Virus record (IMG/VR): IMGVR_UViG_3300021399_004731
DNA length: 64,000 nt
Source of the DNA: a virus
Taxonomy: Duplodnaviria; Heunggongvirae; Uroviricota; Caudoviricetes
Direction: 5' to 3' (one strand)
This document shows, one piece after another, positions 8,315 through 60,850 of the stretch. The position numbers and the translations under genes are program-made. The notes beneath the pieces were generated by a model. That model was not told where the DNA came from and did no database searches. It saw nothing but the letters and a program-made list of their open reading frames with translations. How positions within the stretch are numbered: the stretch's first letter is position 1; every line of letters starts with the position of its first letter.

Positions 8315-8992
8315 CACACGCCCCATTGGCGTGCCCTTTCTTTTTTTATAGTTTTCTGTTCGTTTTTTACTTATTCTGTCTGTTGCTTGTACATGTGTTA
8401 CAATTATATGATATCTATCTGCATGCATATTATATGACAAATCATTACAATTGAAAAGTTAAAAATGAAATATTATGACATTGATATCATATGTTATTAA
8501 TGAATGGACGGCATATGAAGAAACTGCAGATATCAAGTCTCGTTATCATATGCTGCTTGTATGTATCCCATGACAGCACCACCTCCTTTCATCGCTATGC
8601 CCATGGTCATGAGATTTCAGGAATTCCTCTTTCTTATTACAAATATATTATATCATGATATGCAGATATTGCAAAAAAATAGGCATGTAAAATGTAGCTG
8701 ACAGCAACTTTTTTTATGATGGCAAGAAAATGCAAAAAAATACAAAAAATATGATTCAATATAGATAGACATAGCCAGTGTACACTATGTCCGTGCAGGA
8801 CTGCCCGACCCAGCAGCCCTGCTTTTTTTGCTGATATGTCAATTTCCTGCACAGATATTGATAAAAAACAAGCATATAATAATTTTTCTTACACACAGAA
8901 AAAGACCACAGGAATAGAATATTCCCGTGGTCTTTTTTTATGCAATATGGTAGCTGTATCCATCATTACTAGTTGTTAAACCGCTACGGATA

Positions 8993-18244: not shown

Positions 18245-19007
18245 CTCCTGAATGCCATAAAGCCTCAGGAGAAAGAAAATGGCAGAATGCGTGACAGAAA
18301 ATGATGACAGCCTCCATAGGAATAACGGATGCTCTTACCTATCCGTCACCGCTGCTCTCACCCAGCGTCCCATGTGGTCATGTCTCCACATTCTGCTATT
18401 GCAATGCCTGTCTTTTCATCTCTCCTTCTTCTCTATTGCATTTCATGTATATTATATCATATTTATTCTCTATATGTGCAATTCTGACAAAAGAAATTGT
18501 AGAAATTATCCTGAATGCAGTTTTGCGGGTGGATAATGTAATAAACATGATAATGATTGCTAGCAACAGGAATGCATGAAACTGGATTGCTGTCATAAGG
18601 ATTGCATTACATTGATTGCTAATAATAGGAGTGCTATTTAATGGTTGCTGATAAAAGGATTGTTTTAAGTTTGATTGCTGGCATAAGGATAGATAAGGAA
18701 TAATACATGCAATCATTTAGATTGTCACTGGAACTGAGATTGTCAGCTTTAATGATGCTCAACGGAATATGCTCAGTAAGACCAGACATCATGTACTACG
18801 ATAGAATACCATCATCCAGTCTCTTCCTGTAACGATGATGAGCTAGAGAAGATAAAATACGCATTGTTCTCATCGTCTGATATCGCTTAGCCATTAAGCG
18901 AGCCTACTACACAGAGGCGATATCTAACAATGATGAGGAGCAGCTACGCTACTCCTCATTAGACCATATGTTGTGTGAGATTTCTAGTGCTCTATATAAC
19001 ATATGTT

Positions 19008-19299
19008 CTAGTGGACAAAATTCCCCAGCCCTATCCGTATACTATATATCGTAATGCTATACTATGTTGTGCACTTAACATAAAGGGAATTTTGCCACTA
19101 GGCATGACTGAGCGTATTATACTTAGTGCTTAAAACAGTCATGGCTAGTGTTACAGAAATTCCCCACCCTAATTCGTATACTATGTTTCATAGTACTATA
19201 CTTAGTTGTGCACCGACTTTAAAGGAAGTTTTGCTCACACAATTCCCCATCTCTATTACTGTACAATCTATAATATTGCTATATATTAGAAATTCCCCA
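19008..19299. repeat. Two degenerate ~90-bp direct repeats with internal inverted repeats and four AATTCCCCA 9-mers
   Basis: Units at 19008-19098 and 19145-19238. AATTCCCCA at 19019, 19158, 19241 and 19291. IR CTAGTGG(A)CAAAATTCCC 19008-19025 / GGGAATTTTGCCACTAG 19085-19101. IR CATGACTG 19103-19110 / CAGTCATG 19136-19143. Confidence 0.75.
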
Positions 19300-19437
19300 C
19301 CTCTATCTCTATGTATTCCATCATATTACTATACATTACCTTCCAGCCTCATCAGGCTATGCTTTTTTCTTTTTCTTTTCCAGACGTAAAAAAACAGTCA
19401 CCGCAAATGCAGTGGCTGCTTTTTTTAGAACTGATTG

Positions 19438-20486: not shown

Positions 20487-20700
20487 TTGACACTCCACAC
20501 GACTAAAGTCGTGGGATTCTTTATTCCACGCCTGGCATCTAGGCCCTTCCACGGCAGTCACGGCAACACCGTGCTCTGCCTCCAGGTCCCCGATGGAGCA
20601 GGCTCCCAAAGCTTTGATTATCCTGTTCGGGCGTGCCCCGCCCTACAGCTGTATTTCATGTATGTGCTAGGCTCCAAGCATGCTGAGCCCTTCATTCATT
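20467..20700 (-). ncRNA. Putative TnpB omega/reRNA (right-end scaffold plus ~16-20 nt flank-derived guide)
   Basis: Established TnpB biology places the RNA over the tnpB 3' end and right end; the guide would be CAGAACGTCTACATTGCTGT. Boundaries approximate. Confidence 0.55.
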
Positions 20701-21972
20701 ATGTTAATGGCGGCATTGAGGTCACGGTCCATCACGTTTCCGCATCCGCATCTCATGGTGCGCATGCTCAGGTCCTTCATCTCAGGATGGATGGCACCGC
20801 ACACGGAGCACGTCTGGCTTGACGGGAACCACCTGCTGACCTTGACGAGGCGTCCTCCACGTTCATCGAGCTTGTAGGCAAGCATGTTTAAAAGCATGCC
20901 GTACCCGTTGTCAAGCGTTGCCTTTCCGTTGCCGAACCTTTTATTGGACATGGCCTTCATGTCAAGGTCCTCCACGCACACGGTGTCATACTGATTGGCT
21001 ATCTCAGTTGACAGCTTGTGCAGGAAGTCCTTTCTCTGGCATGAGACCTTCTCGTACAGGGCGGCGACCTTTCTCTTCTGCTTCAGGAATGAGGCCGATG
21101 GCTTCTCGCCCTTGCGGAAGCCCTGCTTCTTCGAGAGCATCCTCTGCTGGTGCGCAAGCCTCCTCTCTGTCTTCCTGTAGTACTTAGGCGAGCCTGCCGT
21201 CACGCCGTCTGACGATACGAACAGCCCGTCCGACTTGTAGTCCAGCCCTACGGCCGTGCCTCTGTCAACGGGCGTCTCTGGTACTTCGGCTGTGACCTCG
21301 CATGCAACCGATGCAAAGACCTTGCCCGTCCTCGTGACGGAGACGGTCACGGATAGCTGCTGCCATGACGCAGGAACCTCCCTTGAGACCTTCGCCTTCA
21401 CGATTCCTATCTTTGGGAGCTTCACGCCGTTCTCAAGGAGGCCAGCACTGCCTCTATTGCAGGGCGTCGTGTAGGAGAGGCGAGACTTCTTCCTTGAGTG
21501 GAGCATGGGCCATCCGAAGTGCTTCGGATTGCTGAAGTGCATGTCGTAGGCCCTGCTCAGGTCACGCACTGTTCTCTGAAGGGCTGTTGAGTCGCTTTCA
21601 CCGAGCCATGGGAGCTTCTTCTTGAGCTCTGGCAGCATGGCACTCATTTCCATGAACGAAAGCACCCTGTGGCCTTCCCTGCAGTACGTGACCATGTAGT
21701 TGTGCACGAATCGGCAGCACCCTATGTTGCCCATGATGGCCGCCATCTGGCGGTCTGTGGGATAGAGCCTTACCTTGATGGCCCTGTTGAGTTTCTTCTG
21801 CATATGCTCCTCACCTCCTGTTCACATGTACATTATAGCACTATAGTGCAAGGTGCTCAAATTATAGGGCACTGAATTTAAAAAAATGCTCTGTGAACTA
21901 TACTTCACAGAGCTACGCCTCGTTCAGCCTTATATCCTCACTGCTAAAGCGGTGGGTTTTACGGTTGTCATT
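20487..21972 (-). mobile_element. IS200/IS605-family (IS1341-type, tnpB only) insertion sequence
   Basis: Right end GAATCCCACGACTTTAGTCGTGTGGAGTGTCAA ending TCAA at 20487. Left-end hairpin CCCACCGCTTTAGCAGTGAG at 21936-21957, preceded on the minus strand by TTAT at 21976-21973. No tnpA. Left boundary is inferred. Confidence 0.8.
20667..21803 (-). CDS. tnpB: RNA-guided endonuclease TnpB (IS605 OrfB)
   Basis: N-terminal AIKVRLYPT...GCCRFVHN. RuvC motifs GLD, VED and RDLNAA intact; Zn ribbon CSVC..CGC. Confidence 0.95.
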   Translation of the reverse strand: MQKKLNRAIKVRLYPTDRQMAAIMGNIGCCRFVHNYMVTYCREGHRVLSFMEMSAMLPELKKKLPWLGESDSTALQRTVRDLSRAYDMHFSNPKHFGWPMLHSRKKSRLSYTTPCNRGSAGLLENGVKLPKIGIVKAKVSREVPASWQQLSVTVSVTRTGKVFASVACEVTAEVPETPVDRGTAVGLDYKSDGLFVSSDGVTAGSPKYYRKTERRLAHQQRMLSKKQGFRKGEKPSASFLKQKRKVAALYEKVSCQRKDFLHKLSTEIANQYDTVCVEDLDMKAMSNKRFGNGKATLDNGYGMLLNMLAYKLDERGGRLVKVSRWFPSSQTCSVCGAIHPEMKDLSMRTMRCGCGNVMDRDLNAAINIMNEGLSMLGA

Positions 21973-34589: not shown

Positions 34590-34756
34590 TTTATATATCT
34601 CCTCTCTGCTCCAGCAGCCAAAATGCTGAAGACTTTAAAATTCTTATATATTAAATCATAATAACTATCATAGAAAATTGCAACCTGAATATGATATAAT
34701 AAATACGTATCCATACGATATGCTTATTATATTGGGCAAGAAAGGAGAATGAAAGT

Positions 34757-39783: not shown

Positions 39784-39946
39784 TATGATAAAATATATAT
39801 GCTATTTAGGATGCAAAAACCTTATCAGCTTGAATCTTTCTGGATGGAAACTTAGTCCTGATACGGACGCTTATCAATGTCTCGATGGATGCGAGAATCT
39901 CGTGTTCGTGGACATGAGCGTTTTTGATGGATTGATGAGACTGTGA
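39784..39946 (+). pseudogene. Deleted LRR gene relic: promoter joined directly to the last ~46 codons
   Basis: Promoter motif 39784-39797, then LGCKNLISLNLSGWKLSPDTDAYQCLDGCENLVFVDMSVFDGLMRL*, which closely matches the C-terminus and terminator of member 8. Confidence 0.8.
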
Positions 39947-40072
39947 GATATTGCTATTGAATGGATGGGCATTTTGTCCGTCCTCTTTTTTTATTTTTTG
40001 CATACATCCCTAATATGATAAAATATATATGCTATATTTATGTCCCATTGAGGACGGAGAGGAGAATAAAAT

Positions 40073-55767: not shown

Positions 55768-56079
55768 TTAAATCAAATGCACAACAAATGTCGTAATGAC
55801 GGCATCCAGCTCTTCGCCGTTCATGCCTGTCAGCTTTGTATTCCTGTAGGCAAACTTGTCAGCCGTAATGATGCGTCCATGCTGTGATGCAATCTGTGAT
55901 GCATGCACGACTGCCTTGACGGCATTGCTGACAGCTGTCCTGCCCATTGCTGAGACTTCGACATCACTGTCTGTCTCTAACAGCTTGTAAAGAGAACTGC
56001 CTGCTCTTGCTACATAGCTGTATTCTGTCCTGCCATCGCTTGTTTCAGTCTTTCCTGAACTGATTCTGATTGTTTTCAT
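55768..56079 (-). CDS. SpoVS-like (Alba-fold) protein
   Basis: VEVSAMGRTAVSNAVKAVVHA resembles SpoVS AEIQAIGAGALNQAVKAVAIA; similar C-terminal ..GEELDAVITTFVV strand. Confidence 0.55.
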   Translation of the reverse strand: MKTIRISSGKTETSDGRTEYSYVARAGSSLYKLLETDSDVEVSAMGRTAVSNAVKAVVHASQIASQHGRIITADKFAYRNTKLTGMNGEELDAVITTFVVHLI

Positions 56080-56216
56080 AATTTATTTACCTCACTTGTT
56101 TATTATTTTTTAGAAAAATAGGCGGAGCCACAATCTGCAGCTCTGTCTGATATTTAATCATATTCTAATACTAAAAATGCGAATGCTGCACAGGAGGAAA
56201 AGAGAGCATACAGACC

Positions 56217-57299
56217 CTACCTGCGTCTGACAGTGCTCTTGTCTCTTGCACCTCTCAGTCCCCCACTCTGCTGTGGCTGTGTCTGCTGATACTGTGGTGG
56301 ATTATTATAGGATGTCTGTCCGTTATACTGCTGCTGATACTGGGACTGCTGATAATTATTCTGCTGGTACTGAGGCATTTGAGGCTGATACTGTGTCTGC
56401 TGTAACTGCTGATACTGAGGCTGCTGATACTGATTCTGCTGATTGCTGGCATAGGCAGGAGCCTGCGTCTGCTGTGGCTGATACTGTGTACGAGGCTGCT
56501 GCATGGACTGCATATCCATGTTGTCTACATCAGAATCAATGAAGACACAGATGAGTGAGGCATTGTCCACCTTGCTGTCACTCTCGTCCACCTTTCTGAT
56601 GACCTTTTCCACGCCTCCCTGCACGGATGCATTGTCGCCGTCCTCTGCAAAGCTGTTGAGCACGTCATTAGGCGTAAGCTGGGCAAACAGTCCATCCGTT
56701 GCCAGAAACATGATATCCTTCTCAAATGCCTGCTCCACCCTGACATCCATCATGAACTGCTCCATCAGGCCAAGGCAGCTGGTCACTACGCCTCTTTTTG
56801 GATGAGCATAGAATTCCGATTCCTGAATCTTGCCTGCCTTGAGGTCATTAAAGGCTTCAGAAAAGACAGTGTTGATTCTCTTGAACTCTCCTGAACGGAA
56901 GGTCTGAATCTCCGTGTTGCCGACAGAGCCATAGAGGCACTGCAATGTCATCCTGTTGATGATGACGACTGAAGCAGAGACATAGACACCTGCATATCTG
57001 TCTGAGATGGCGTTGATGGACAGCACTGCCCTTGAAGCCATATAGAGAGCATCCTCCATCATAGGTCTCAGTATATTCATATCATTCACCATTGCTGTCA
57101 TAGGTGTCAGCTTTCTGATGAAGTAGTCATTGATGATGTTGCTGACTAGCTTGCCGACATTGACCATGCCTTTAGTGCATCCATTGCCGTCAAAGATGCT
57201 GATGATGACAAAATCATTGATTTCATGAATGTCAAGAGCATCGCCGTTATAGTCCAGACCGCCAGCTGTCGTCTGTCCATAGGCATATATACGTGCCAT
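56217..57299 (-). CDS. PP2C/PPM-family phosphatase-like protein with a Gln/Tyr-rich tail
   Basis: IFDGNG, FLATDGL and VDNAS motifs; GSVGNT replaces the usual GDS; QQPQYQQ tail. Confidence 0.8.
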   Translation of the reverse strand: MARIYAYGQTTAGGLDYNGDALDIHEINDFVIISIFDGNGCTKGMVNVGKLVSNIINDYFIRKLTPMTAMVNDMNILRPMMEDALYMASRAVLSINAISDRYAGVYVSASVVIINRMTLQCLYGSVGNTEIQTFRSGEFKRINTVFSEAFNDLKAGKIQESEFYAHPKRGVVTSCLGLMEQFMMDVRVEQAFEKDIMFLATDGLFAQLTPNDVLNSFAEDGDNASVQGGVEKVIRKVDESDSKVDNASLICVFIDSDVDNMDMQSMQQPRTQYQPQQTQAPAYASNQQNQYQQPQYQQLQQTQYQPQMPQYQQNNYQQSQYQQQYNGQTSYNNPPQYQQTQPQQSGGLRGARDKSTVRRR

Positions 57300-57457
57300 A
57301 TAGCACACCTCCTTGTGATATTATCTATCTATGCATTTCATTAATATTATTATTGTTTCTTATATATTTAAGCATACAGACAGCTTGTTTGCATGATTAT
57401 TATAAAATTTGTATGTTGAATTTTCATCATTTTTAGGATTAATATGATATAATATCT

Positions 57458-58170
57458 GTAGAGGTTGCTGGATGCCTGAAATTCCAGAAAGCTATGCAAA
57501 AACCTAATCAGCTGGTTTGTCCTAAAGAAATTGGATGCAGACTTTACGGAATGCTTGTATAACCACACGAAGAGTAGTTGCGTGTATAAAGAAAAAGCTA
57601 AGTTTAGCGGAGCTTAACTGAGAAAATTCGCTCGGAACTCGCCTGTCTAAATTGCCATGGTGTCTGACGTTAGCGGCTGGAGAATCTACATGGCCGTTGC
57701 CTAAATGCATGTTATATTAATATAATAAAATATGCACAGGGTTAAAAGTAGGGATTGGAGGCTGAGTGTAAGCTCGTCCAGTCTGACAAGGAATCTAGAA
57801 AACGGATGCTTTATCAGATTGGATAATCTAGTGGAGCGTAAATAACCCACTGGGGACATATCAAGCACTGGAAACGGTGTGGCGGTAGATGCGAACAGAA
57901 GTGAGACGCCGCTTAAGGATATGGCATGTGACAGGATGCTGAAATGCATCTGGAATCACGTGGGCGTGAATCATTATGATATCGTAATGAGACACGTGTG
58001 CATATTGGCAATAAACGGGTGACGGCCGACGAAAGGGCGACGGGGGTCAAAAGACCTCTCACCAGAAGACGCATTCCCTCTCCCCCTAGCGATAGGGGGA
58101 GTACGTCCTCAAGCTCAAACACTCCTCTGAAGCTCTGGGGGTCTTGTTAGGAGCGTAGCAAATAATGTTG
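57458..58170 (+). ncRNA. Candidate large (~710 nt) highly structured ncRNA (ROOL/GOLLD-like size class)
   Basis: Promoter motif 57443-57456. No credible ORF. Dense stems, e.g. TCCAGTCTGA/TCAGATTGGA, TCATTATG/CGTAATGA, GGGGGTC/GACCTCT and CTCCCCCTA-GCGA-TAGGGGGAG. Confidence 0.6.
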
Positions 58171-59975
58171 CACAATATGATGAAAAGCTCTCTAACAGTA
58201 TGTGCAATTCGTCTAATGTTGCATATTCGTGTAACCATTGAAGCAGAATGGATATTTCAAGGCATTCAGAATTGCAGTACCACCAGAGCTGCTCATTAGC
58301 AGGACACAGCGTCACACTAAAAATCAGTCATATATCATCAGAGACACAGGAGTGGATAGCGTTCCTGTGTCTATTGCATTATGCTGGCAATCATGAGGAC
58401 AGCTGTGTCAGCTCATTGAAAGAGGAGTGATGGAGAGAGACGGAATGGCAAGAGCGTCCTGGAAAAGAAGAAGAACCTGAAAAGGAAGAAGCAAAGGCAA
58501 TCAGCTCCCATGCATACAGCGTCTTAAAAGCAAAAGAACAGAGAGTCATCAGCGTCTGCAGACAGTCAGAGACATCACCAGTCCAGCCTCTCCATCAGAC
58601 AGGAGAAGAGCGGCATGAGCGTTTGCGGATGACAGAGGACGGAGTGATGAGGTGGATAGAGAGCGGTTATCATAATGACAGGAGTACATAATATCAGAGA
58701 ATACATACAGACAGCTCTCACACGTACAGCAGTCATGAGTGACAGTCAGACAGTCATGAATGTCATGGGGAAGCCTCATCACGACATAAAGAAATGTGCA
58801 GGCATGGAGAGGAAATAGAGCACTGTAACCTCCATGCATGCACAGAATAATGGCATGTCCGTTTAGTAGAGGGAGGAAGGCTAAAAGGGACAAGAGGACA
58901 TGCATCCTTATTAATATATAGATAGTATTAGTATTAATAGATAGTGTGTATAGTACTTACAGTATTTATAGTGCTTATTTATAGCAACAGTACTGATTAG
59001 TATTTATAGTACTGCTATCCATTCTATTCTCCCCTATCCTGTTCCATTTCCCTATGCATTCTTCCTTAGTTCTATTCAGTTTCCTTATGCCTCTTATCGT
59101 TATCCTATTCCGATACCTCATGAATCATCAATCCACCTATTTCCCTATTCATTCAGACAGCCAGCAGCGACAGACTGCTGGCATTATACGTTTACTGACG
59201 GTAAACAGGCTATCGCATAGCCAGTAATCATTCATCAGGAATCCTATAAGACAGCCCAGCAGAATGCATCAGACAGCAGGACAGACAGTTTTATGTAATG
59301 CATTCCATATAGCATTACACACTATTCAAGTCCATCATTGCAATGCTAGTATGCATTAATGATATTCTATATAATTGCCATGATATCATTACACAGTCAA
59401 CAAATCTCATTGATATGTATTACTGTACAACAATACATTCAATTATTTACATGCTTCTATTATCGTGATAGAGCATGTCTGAGCCGTTTTTATCAAAAGA
59501 GATACAGCAATACCAGAAAGTACAAATACAGCTGTAGCAGATTGTTATGAGTTACAATAGAGACAGCGGACATGATTGCAGGAATTGCAGTGAGGAATAC
59601 TGTAATGAAGCAGATGAGGCTCCTGCTTTTGGAATTCATGCTGGATGCTTATTAGAGTACGAGAAATAAAAACGAAAAAGGCGTAGATAATTTCTACAAA
59701 ACAAGGTTTGATGAATTAGCTGGGAAATAAAAACGCAAAAACCGTTTTTATTAGGATTTAGACGGAAGACATCATCATGACATTTCCTCTGTACTTTCTG
59801 CAGTAGTCATCATCCTCTTGTTTCTGTTTCTTTCTGTCCTTAAAAGTTGCACAATATAGCATTATACGCAACATTATGAAAATAATATAAAAGACATAGA
59901 GTTACAAAATATAGCTATATATGCAACTATACAGCAAATAAAAAGAGACAGCAATCACTGTCTCATGATGATGTA

Positions 59976-60680
59976 TTAATTGTCTGATGGCGTCTTTTTG
60001 TCGTTACTGTTATCGACATCAGTATGGTCGTCAGACATCTGCGCAGGCTTGACGGTCACAGGCTGGATGTTGATAGGCTCAACAGGCTTGACAGGCTTGA
60101 CAGTCACATGGTTGTAATTCACTGATGACTGAGCAGGCTGTGATGGCTGAGCAGGACGCTGATTGCCCTGAGCATCAGCATTTCTTGCACCGTTCTTGCT
60201 CTTCTTGTTAGCATGCTGCTGGTTTAAATAGGCAATCGTGGCTTCATCAGGTTCCCATTTATCATCAAATCCAGCAACAATCCACATCACGTATGGGAAG
60301 AAGAGGAAGAGCCAAGCATAGTTGACTGACTGTCCAAGCTGGTCACAGATGTTCTGATAAGCATGGAAGGCAATGACAATATAGACGATATAGAGTACCA
60401 TGGATGCAATAAAGAAAAGCAGTGCAAAGATGGCAACAAATCCTGAGACATCGGCGTCAGTTGATGCAGCTACCATGAATACGAACATTCCCATGATGAA
60501 TGAGAAGTATCCTGCAAATCCCAGAAGGAATGCCCATGGATTCTTTTTCCCGACCTTCAGAACCGTAAAGGAATTGACGAGAGGAATGATGGCCTTCCAT
60601 CCATCCTCTCCAAGTTTTTCAAACACCTTGTACATTCCTACGATTTCAAGAATGATTAAGGCAAACGAAATAAAATTCAT
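59976..60680 (-). CDS. DUF5684-like membrane protein with a Pro/Gln-rich tail
   Basis: GMYKVFEKLGEDGWKAIIPLVNSF...KKNPWAFLL pattern; GGAGGTG RBS; promoter motif 60717-60730. Confidence 0.7.
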   Translation of the reverse strand: MNFISFALIILEIVGMYKVFEKLGEDGWKAIIPLVNSFTVLKVGKKNPWAFLLGFAGYFSFIMGMFVFMVAASTDADVSGFVAIFALLFFIASMVLYIVYIVIAFHAYQNICDQLGQSVNYAWLFLFFPYVMWIVAGFDDKWEPDEATIAYLNQQHANKKSKNGARNADAQGNQRPAQPSQPAQSSVNYNHVTVKPVKPVEPINIQPVTVKPAQMSDDHTDVDNSNDKKTPSDN

Positions 60681-60850
60681 GCAAATTCACCTCCATTATG
60701 CTGAAAAATGCATGATGATATTTAATCATATTGTGCATTGAGAGACTGTATGGCAACTTCTATTTTTCTCTATTTCGTTGTCTAATATTTTGCAATATTT
60801 GCCTTTTTGTAATATAATATCTATGTACTAAATAATAGGAGGTGTGCATT

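Follow-up and report, generated by a model that had tools for sequence, protein, structure and literature searches.

The question raised by positions 57,458 to 58,170 of a 64,000-nucleotide (nt) stretch of viral DNA (IMG/VR virus record IMGVR_UViG_3300021399_004731; the whole stretch is called the window below) is what a segment without genes might encode. A preliminary description, made from the letters alone, had proposed a densely base-paired RNA candidate of ~710 nt at these positions, either a member of a class such as ROOL or GOLLD or a new large RNA. The gap without genes extends far beyond the stretch flagged earlier: over 57309-59975 (2.67 kb) no open reading frame (ORF) reaches 90 amino acids (aa). 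It is bounded by a 363-aa gene on the left (56217-57308) and a 234-aa DUF5684-like gene on the right (59976-60680), both on the - strand and thus opposite to the RNA. With a probability of roughly 0.7, we read the locus as a stand-alone gene for a structured non-coding RNA of ~0.9-1.0 kb, which has its own promoter, is transcribed from the + strand, belongs to no Rfam 15 family, acts in trans and is compactly folded. The RNA is a new kilobase non-coding RNA family, found only in one element family and of very narrow known distribution.

Relatives of the locus were found through homologues of the two neighbouring proteins (the 363-aa and DUF5684-like proteins), on contigs from sheep and cattle rumen assemblies. 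Gene order is identical on all of these contigs, and each has the gene-free gap, of ~2.7 kb. They provided 11 distinct versions of the RNA region (57430-58420), which are 91.5-99.9% identical and 991-993 nt long, differing in length by at most 2 nt. That the length stays constant to 2 nt while the sequence diverges by 8%, and that the core is invariant, points to three-dimensional constraints and not to a simple antisense RNA or leader. The consensus fold of the 11 versions (RNAalifold, alignment A1) contains 286 pairs, and 99.6% of the cells are paired. At 16 of the 286 pairs both sides have changed with the pairing kept, in 12 helices and with nine different sequence partitions, so that covariation among homologues, a check named in the preliminary description, is present. 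The clearest case is the helix 57830-57834/57847-57851, in which AGUGG/CCACU is replaced by GACAG/CUGUC in two versions, giving four consecutive double changes (57830-57833/57848-57851). In the hairpin 57764-57775, an A-U pair of the stem is replaced by G-C and the GNRA loop changes from GUAA to GAAA. Other covarying pairs are found at 57568/57582, 57606/57632, 57609/57629, 57765/57774, 57783/57817, 57860/57920, 57883/57911, 57929/57958, and 57975/57986. The covariation is concentrated in 57500-58000, and 58000-58300 is nearly invariant.

Several controls were applied to the number of double changes. Sliding the 3' partners by one to three columns left 0-4 double changes and 35-42% pairing, and redealing the 3' letters within the pairs gave 10.1 ± 1.6 double changes, with none of 500 shuffles reaching 16. 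For the single-sequence fold of the window, which is a more independent structure, 12 double changes were counted versus 2-5 in the slid controls. In a phylogeny-preserving null, each substitution pattern was reassigned at random to a column sharing its reference base, and the alignment was refolded, in 40 repeats. This null bears on the explanation that the stretch has no function, its pairings being DNA-level hairpins or the outcome of recent common descent plus chance complementarity, as might be supposed from the close relationship of all versions and from a core that never varies. It yielded 2.5 ± 1.4 double changes (maximum 6) versus the 16 observed, a consensus energy of -248.6 ± 8.6 versus -293.4 kcal/mol, and 15.4 pairs with a break versus 9. 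Moreover, the RNA is free of indels, which abound in the non-coding DNA next to it, RNA libraries of several studies contain the stretch, and the G-U pairs and one-sided transitions described below fit one strand only. We therefore regard an explanation without function as scarcely credible.

The strand of the signal is apparent from the pairs themselves. The window sequence forms 41 G-U pairs, and the identical positions reach only 86% pairing when the - strand is read; the G-U pairs that had been taken earlier as an argument for RNA structure are thus numerous and specific to the + strand. One-sided changes occur throughout the RNA (for example, G-U to A-U and U-G to C-G) and likewise fit the + strand only. 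The segment had also been called ORF-free, and this description holds in substance: the + strand ORFs of at least 30 aa inside the RNA are only 37-52 aa long and have no ribosome-binding site, and in relatives stops or frameshifts interrupt every one of them except one. In the sole ORF that stays open (57732-57845), the variable sites are distributed over the three codon positions as 4, 7, and 7, with no third-position bias. Alternative genetic codes (table 4, TAG=Q) were also considered and opened only the frames expected from the removal of a stop, and non-triplet indels in relatives argue against coding. The G-U pairs, the one-sided changes, and the broken ORFs together indicate a + strand RNA signal that is neither protein-coding nor a DNA hairpin.

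Transcription, another check named at the outset, was examined in RNA libraries, which provide evidence for it. Words of 57440-58400 occur in 13 RNA-library runs from about nine studies. Contigs of four metatranscriptome runs (four studies, on sheep and cattle) were compared over 56200-60700, and those at the RNA lie on 57470-58350: 57515-58284 in sheep, 57852-58306 in two gut runs of 2017, and 57470-58078 plus 58093-58350 in the bovine run. The DUF5684-like gene is also covered by contigs of two of the four runs. No contigs of these runs lie on 56450-57470 or 58360-59970, an absence that we do not take as evidence on the ends or on silent flanks. The bovine contigs are ~92% identical and carry compensated changes independently at 57568/57582, 57765/57774, and 57783/57817. 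Runs sharing few words with the stretch play no part in our statements on habitat.

The folding energy agrees with the dense base-pairing claimed for the stretch. The + strand of 57458-58170 (713 nt) folds with -233.5 kcal/mol, compared with -199.9 ± 8.2 for shuffled sequences (z = -4.1) and only -186.1 for the - strand, and 57460-58420 (961 nt) reaches -319.4 kcal/mol (z = -5.4); an energy no better than that of shuffles, which would have spoken against the claim, was not obtained. In the consensus model, the RNA is composed of about 45 helices arranged in three domains (Table 1), and at least five hairpin loops are of the GNRA type, those of the periphery lying at 57768-57771 (GUAA or GAAA) and 57871-57874 (GAAA). 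The model places an invariant core, made up of the 5' 100 nt (57459-57557, invariant in all versions) and of 58014-58150, within the clamp of a long-range helix, and adds a variable periphery whose helices are preserved by compensatory changes. The helix that closes the first domain is a predicted one, and its sequence never varies. The 11-base-pair (bp) hairpin of the third domain shows one double change (58344/58370), and its one-sided changes keep the pairing only on the + strand; its U tail is weak, and it may therefore lie internally or act as a weak terminator. Neither paralogues of the RNA nor repeat modules inside it were found in the window. A classic 11-nt tetraloop receptor (CCUAAA plus UAUGG) was considered and dropped, since its UAUGG sits in a covarying helix.

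Six of the eight stems listed in the preliminary description recur in the consensus fold of the 11 versions. Three of them covary: ACACG/CGTGT (57565/57581; C-G to U-A), the 10-bp stem at 57777/57814 (C-G to A-U), and CACGTG with the stem it encloses at 57971/57983 (U-A to C-G). GATGC/GCATC and the 9-bp stem with the GCGA loop (58080-58101) are invariant, and the hairpin GGGGGTC-AAAA-GACCTCT (58042-58059) is retained with a loop of AAAA or GAAA. The stem GTGGCG/CGCCGC had been placed correctly but in the wrong register, covariation favouring 57881-57886/57908-57913. The stem AGTTTAGC/GCTTAACT (57601/57612) is broken by substitutions and gives way to an alternative favoured by covariation, 57606-57611/57627-57632.

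The promoter motif claimed just before the stretch proved to be real and invariant in the 11 versions, and the columns upstream of the 13-nt block (columns 16-28 of alignment A1) vary among them. With up to two mismatches, the 13-mer occurs 11 times in the window versus 3.7 expected. Boxes of the TGATATAAT-ATCT type are found at 8404-8655, 18447, 28877, 34646-34704, 39786-40028, and 60810, and they look like an extended -10 promoter type shared across the element. We infer that transcription starts at about 57459-57461; a bovine RNA-library contig begins at 57470 with no loose end. The stretch given earlier ends too soon at 58170 on the 3' side, and only the first domain ends at 58129. From 57449 to 58446 there are essentially no indels and the column identity is 92-100% in the 11 versions, with the invariant block continuing to 58462, and starting at 58447 hot spots of indels separate the conserved blocks. 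Beyond 58450 there is no covariation and little predicted structure. The 3' end lies between about 58372 and 58462, which gives a length of about 0.9-1.0 kb.

Table 1. Features of the RNA locus and of the gap in which it lies (window positions).
Feature	Start	End	Strand	Remarks
Promoter	57445	57457	+	extended -10 box TGATATAAT (57445-57453) within a 13-nt block invariant in 11/11 versions
RNA gene, largest likely extent	57459	58462	+	~1.0 kb; RNA-library contigs cover 57470-58350
Domain 1 (predicted)	57459	58129	+	~670 nt; closed by long-range helix 57459-57464/58124-58129 plus 57466-57467/58120-58121
Variable periphery	57565	57997	+	15 of the 16 covarying pairs
G+C-rich core, nearly invariant	58014	58150	+	hairpins 58042-58059 (loop AAAA/GAAA) and 58080-58101 (loop GCGA)
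Domain 2 (predicted)	58131	58290	+	closed by helix 58131-58140/58280-58290; almost invariant
Domain 3 (predicted)	58293	58419	+	helix 58303-58313/58398-58409; 11-bp hairpin 58342-58372
Invariant 3' block	58421	58462	+	AGAGGAG then ATG; possibly the final part of the RNA
Rest of gene-free gap	58463	59975		context, not RNA; conserved blocks split by indel hot spots; AGACAGY and AT-rich direct repeats

Transcription runs rightward from the RNA's own extended -10 promoter, and our working proposal is that the product acts in trans as a compactly folded RNA, either a scaffold or the core of an RNA-protein particle. By analogy with ROOL and GOLLD, it may also form higher-order RNA assemblies. It probably serves the element that carries it. 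A further proposal, which we put forward tentatively as a possibility, is that the RNA represents an undescribed ornate class of ~1 kb, larger than GOLLD, on an unclassified family of extrachromosomal elements of the rumen. Its invariant core and its periphery of constant length would form a defined three-dimensional particle (possibly multimeric), a new ribozyme or a ribonucleoprotein, with a new function in the life cycle of the element.

Several points weigh against the reading as a stand-alone, trans-acting RNA. The scaffold role is deduced from the architecture of the RNA. The covariation comes from few lineages (nine partitions), because all versions are at least 91.5% identical and belong to one element lineage, and because the helices of the core, the closing one among them, show no variation, covariation does not bear on them. 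Between unpaired segments, the search for pseudoknots of at least five conserved pairs returned only three weak A/U-rich candidates without covariation, and no tetraloop receptor was demonstrated in the RNA. Contigs from RNA libraries show presence, not level, strand or ends, and carry-over of DNA is possible. ROOL RNAs typically lie in prophages or phages, often, though not obligatorily, beside tRNA genes. Many loci of ROOL and GOLLD are near tRNA genes and none is near this RNA, ARAGORN having found no tRNA gene in the 64-kb window. Finally, an SD-like box (AGAGGAG) and then an ATG come directly after the RNA, within the invariant block 58398-58462, which makes a leader function possible.

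Such a function would make the RNA a giant cis-acting leader, forming the 5' portion of an mRNA, or a dual-function RNA, whose kilobase structure hides or frees the AGAGGAG box of a small, very basic ORF (MERDGMARASWK...; + strand, start at 58430 or at a second ATG at 58445; 58430-58480 in the window). Of the ten relatives examined, most keep the frame open over 56 aa and L020 keeps it open over 40 aa, but it stops after 16 aa in the window, inside an 18-nt insertion, and is frameshifted mid-way in L002; open frames are also cheap here, because the region is purine-rich. There is no coding signature: the variable sites fall on the codon positions as 4, 3, and 7, and 4 synonymous versus 9 amino-acid-changing codons are no better than in the other two frames. 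The first 11 codons are nucleotide-invariant, which fits a constraint on the RNA, and the gene callers predicted nothing there in any locus. The 3' block can pair with the invariant segment 58062-58128, including a perfect 9-bp pairing of CACUCCUCU with AGAGGAGUG, and in the consensus fold with the block included this pairing competes with the domain-closing helix. The duplex energy of -35.6 kcal/mol is among the best 1.4% of window-wide backgrounds and the best 2.5% of shuffles, a statistic that is suggestive only, both arms being invariant. Considering all of these points, we think that a leader is an unlikely role for the RNA.

The remaining 1.5 kb of the gap raises another alternative, namely that the RNA is linked to replication or maintenance, as a pre-primer or a regulator acting on the adjacent region as an origin or partition site, in principle like RNA II of ColE1. 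The RNA is transcribed toward this conserved non-coding region, and the element has its own DnaE-type polymerase and a protein with an SSB domain. Ten copies of AGACAGY lie on the + strand in 58560-59963 (1.4 kb) and, with one - strand copy, make up 11 of the 47 copies in the window, for which 22 are expected; conservation of the sites among relatives is only partial, and they may bind protein or be a peculiarity of composition. Three copies of an AT-rich 15-nt direct repeat (AGTATTTATAGTACT-like; 58943-59013) lie in an AT-rich segment (58909-59013), and a second pair of repeats, of 20 nt, lies at 59016-59160. The segment is flanked by a purine-rich left arm (58400-58900) and a pyrimidine-rich right arm, the skew flipping at about 58900-59000, and the layout of the AT-rich repeats looks origin-like or partition-like. 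On the other hand, no initiator gene adjoins, the neighbours being PP2C-like and DUF5684-like, and the repeat block at 18860-19330 is another origin candidate. Primer RNAs, moreover, do not look ornate and GNRA-rich with an invariant core. A role in replication thus seems improbable to us. Two further hairpins lie in this region. The hairpin AATAAAAACG/CGTTTTTATT (59726-59752) gave a weak L17DE-like Rfam match (E 0.88) and is probably just terminator-like, and an 8-bp hairpin with a T run (59945-59964) is likely the terminator of the DUF5684-like gene.

Returning to the stand-alone RNA gene, the neighbouring proteins were scanned (PP2C-like, SpoVS-like, ERF, and DUF5684-like), and the neighbouring genes indicate no partner for the RNA. 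The 363-aa protein resembles PP2C/SpoIIE phosphatases by language-model features (0.94), with no Pfam match. Its N-terminal ~270 aa are 98-100% invariant among relatives, and its end consists of a Q/Y/P-rich tail that varies in length and a basic RRR terminus. The next gene beyond it (55768-56079, - strand) is SpoVS-like, and the two genes may form a sporulation-signalling module on a mobile element.

The carrier is a plasmid-like, unclassified element, and the RNA was found only on one family of such elements, in bacteria of the sheep and cattle rumen. In the window proteins, no clear phage structural genes were found with PHROGs and Pfam. The DnaE-type polymerase of the element shows at most 35% identity to anything in the phage or plasmid sets; in addition to the SSB-domain protein, ERF, MoxR-type ATPases, a TnpB gene, and giant ORFs are encoded. 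The TnpB gene (20667-21803, - strand) encodes OrfB_IS605 with a Cas12f1-like TNB domain. IscB genes (RRXRR plus HNH) with HEARO omega RNAs are present in relatives, at 13553-15209 in L001 and at ~1583-3149 in L020 and L022. These are two different sites; the window has neither insertion, and the difference represents an IscB insertion polymorphism within one element family.

Wider searches returned no further copies of the locus. BLASTN with 11-nt words found no homologues of 57300-60000 in the plasmids and phages of PLSDB and INPHARED, and exact-pattern scans of IMG/VR with conserved 20-21-mers found no match. In JGI metagenome contigs and GTDB genomes, pattern scans returned nothing beyond chance matches of 19-22 nt with no further similarity, and no IMG/VR loci were related through the 363-aa protein. 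That protein forms only two 90% clusters in 5.8 billion proteins and the DUF5684-like protein forms eight clusters, with at least 66% identity throughout; since both proteins have few, close homologue clusters, the locus could not be traced to relatives farther away. The narrow known distribution limits the general reach of the RNA. At the same time, the RNA draws attention to a family of large rumen elements that is uncharacterised and in which nearly every gene is without known function.

The option that the RNA belongs to ROOL, GOLLD, OLE or an intron class was put to Rfam 15. At gathering score, nothing in the 64-kb window was matched and the RNA matched no family in seven relatives, and searches of 57200-60100 (2.9 kb) and 57440-58460 (1 kb) with E up to 10 returned only low-scoring noise of the snoRNA and miRNA type. 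In the same scan, HEARO (RF02033) was recovered beside IscB in L001, L020, and L022 with 94-104 bits, and so the scan works on this DNA. The covariance models of ROOL, GOLLD, and OLE found no match at the locus, nor did those of the group I intron (Intron_gpI) and of the ORF-less group II intron (domain V/VI and D1-D4 models); the RNA is intergenic, with a promoter of its own. Cow-rumen-1 (RF02946) found no match in the window at any threshold. RF02033 did not match at the RNA locus, which no IscB or TnpB gene adjoins. Membership of the modelled classes was thus not borne out, and the other option of the preliminary description, a new large RNA, is supported by the covariation, the strand-specific G-U pairs, and the presence in RNA libraries.

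One could still imagine that the RNA is a strongly diverged representative, missed by the covariance models, of a large RNA or ribozyme class already known (an ORF-less group II intron, a group I intron, ROOL, GOLLD or OLE), the size, the many GNRA loops, the mobile-element context, and the rumen origin being alike (PMC5737381, PMC12286853). Yet there was no Rfam match even at E up to 10 on the 1-kb search space, with a method that detects HEARO in relatives; the RNA interrupts no gene and is served by a promoter of its own; neither a reverse transcriptase nor a maturase is encoded nearby; and the 64 kb are free of tRNA genes. We hold this origin to be very improbable. The RNA is a large ornate bacterial non-coding RNA, being longer than 500 nt and non-coding, with many helices and junctions supported by covariation and its own transcription unit, a term that denotes a descriptive kind and not a homologous family. 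To our knowledge, very few bacterial non-coding RNAs exceed 500 nt, and this one would rank among the largest outside the ribosome. Given its covarying helices, the evidence for its expression in several independent rumen metatranscriptomes, and its defined promoter, it is ready for in vitro transcription, probing, and cryo-electron microscopy.

Comparison with the known systems places the RNA as follows. HEARO, the omega RNA of IscB, shares with it the element family, on relatives of which it was found, but is ~220 nt long, lies at other sites beside IscB, and has no similarity to this RNA. OLE is likewise a large, highly structured RNA of anaerobic Firmicutes-type settings; it is chromosomal and works with the OapA/B/C proteins, whereas this RNA is carried on a plasmid-like element. 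ROOL, whose consensus has six multistem junctions as well as three pseudoknots with a mean length of 581 nt, is also a large, ornate, stand-alone non-coding RNA with many stems and junctions, first seen in rumen data and associated with mobile DNA (PMC5737381, PMC12286853). It differs in its mean length from the ~0.9-1.0 kb here and in a covariance model that was not matched; the present RNA, for which no pseudoknots were shown, has a very narrow distribution and lies on a plasmid-like element and not on an evident prophage. Every such large class has turned out to be unusual, since OLE, ROOL, and GOLLD form RNA-only dimers or cages, and GOLLD is often longer than 800 nt (PMC12286853). In contrast to GOLLD, this RNA gave no sign of lytic-cycle induction or of a 14-mer cage; the two have in common their size class, a multi-domain architecture, and a mobile-element context (PMC12286853).
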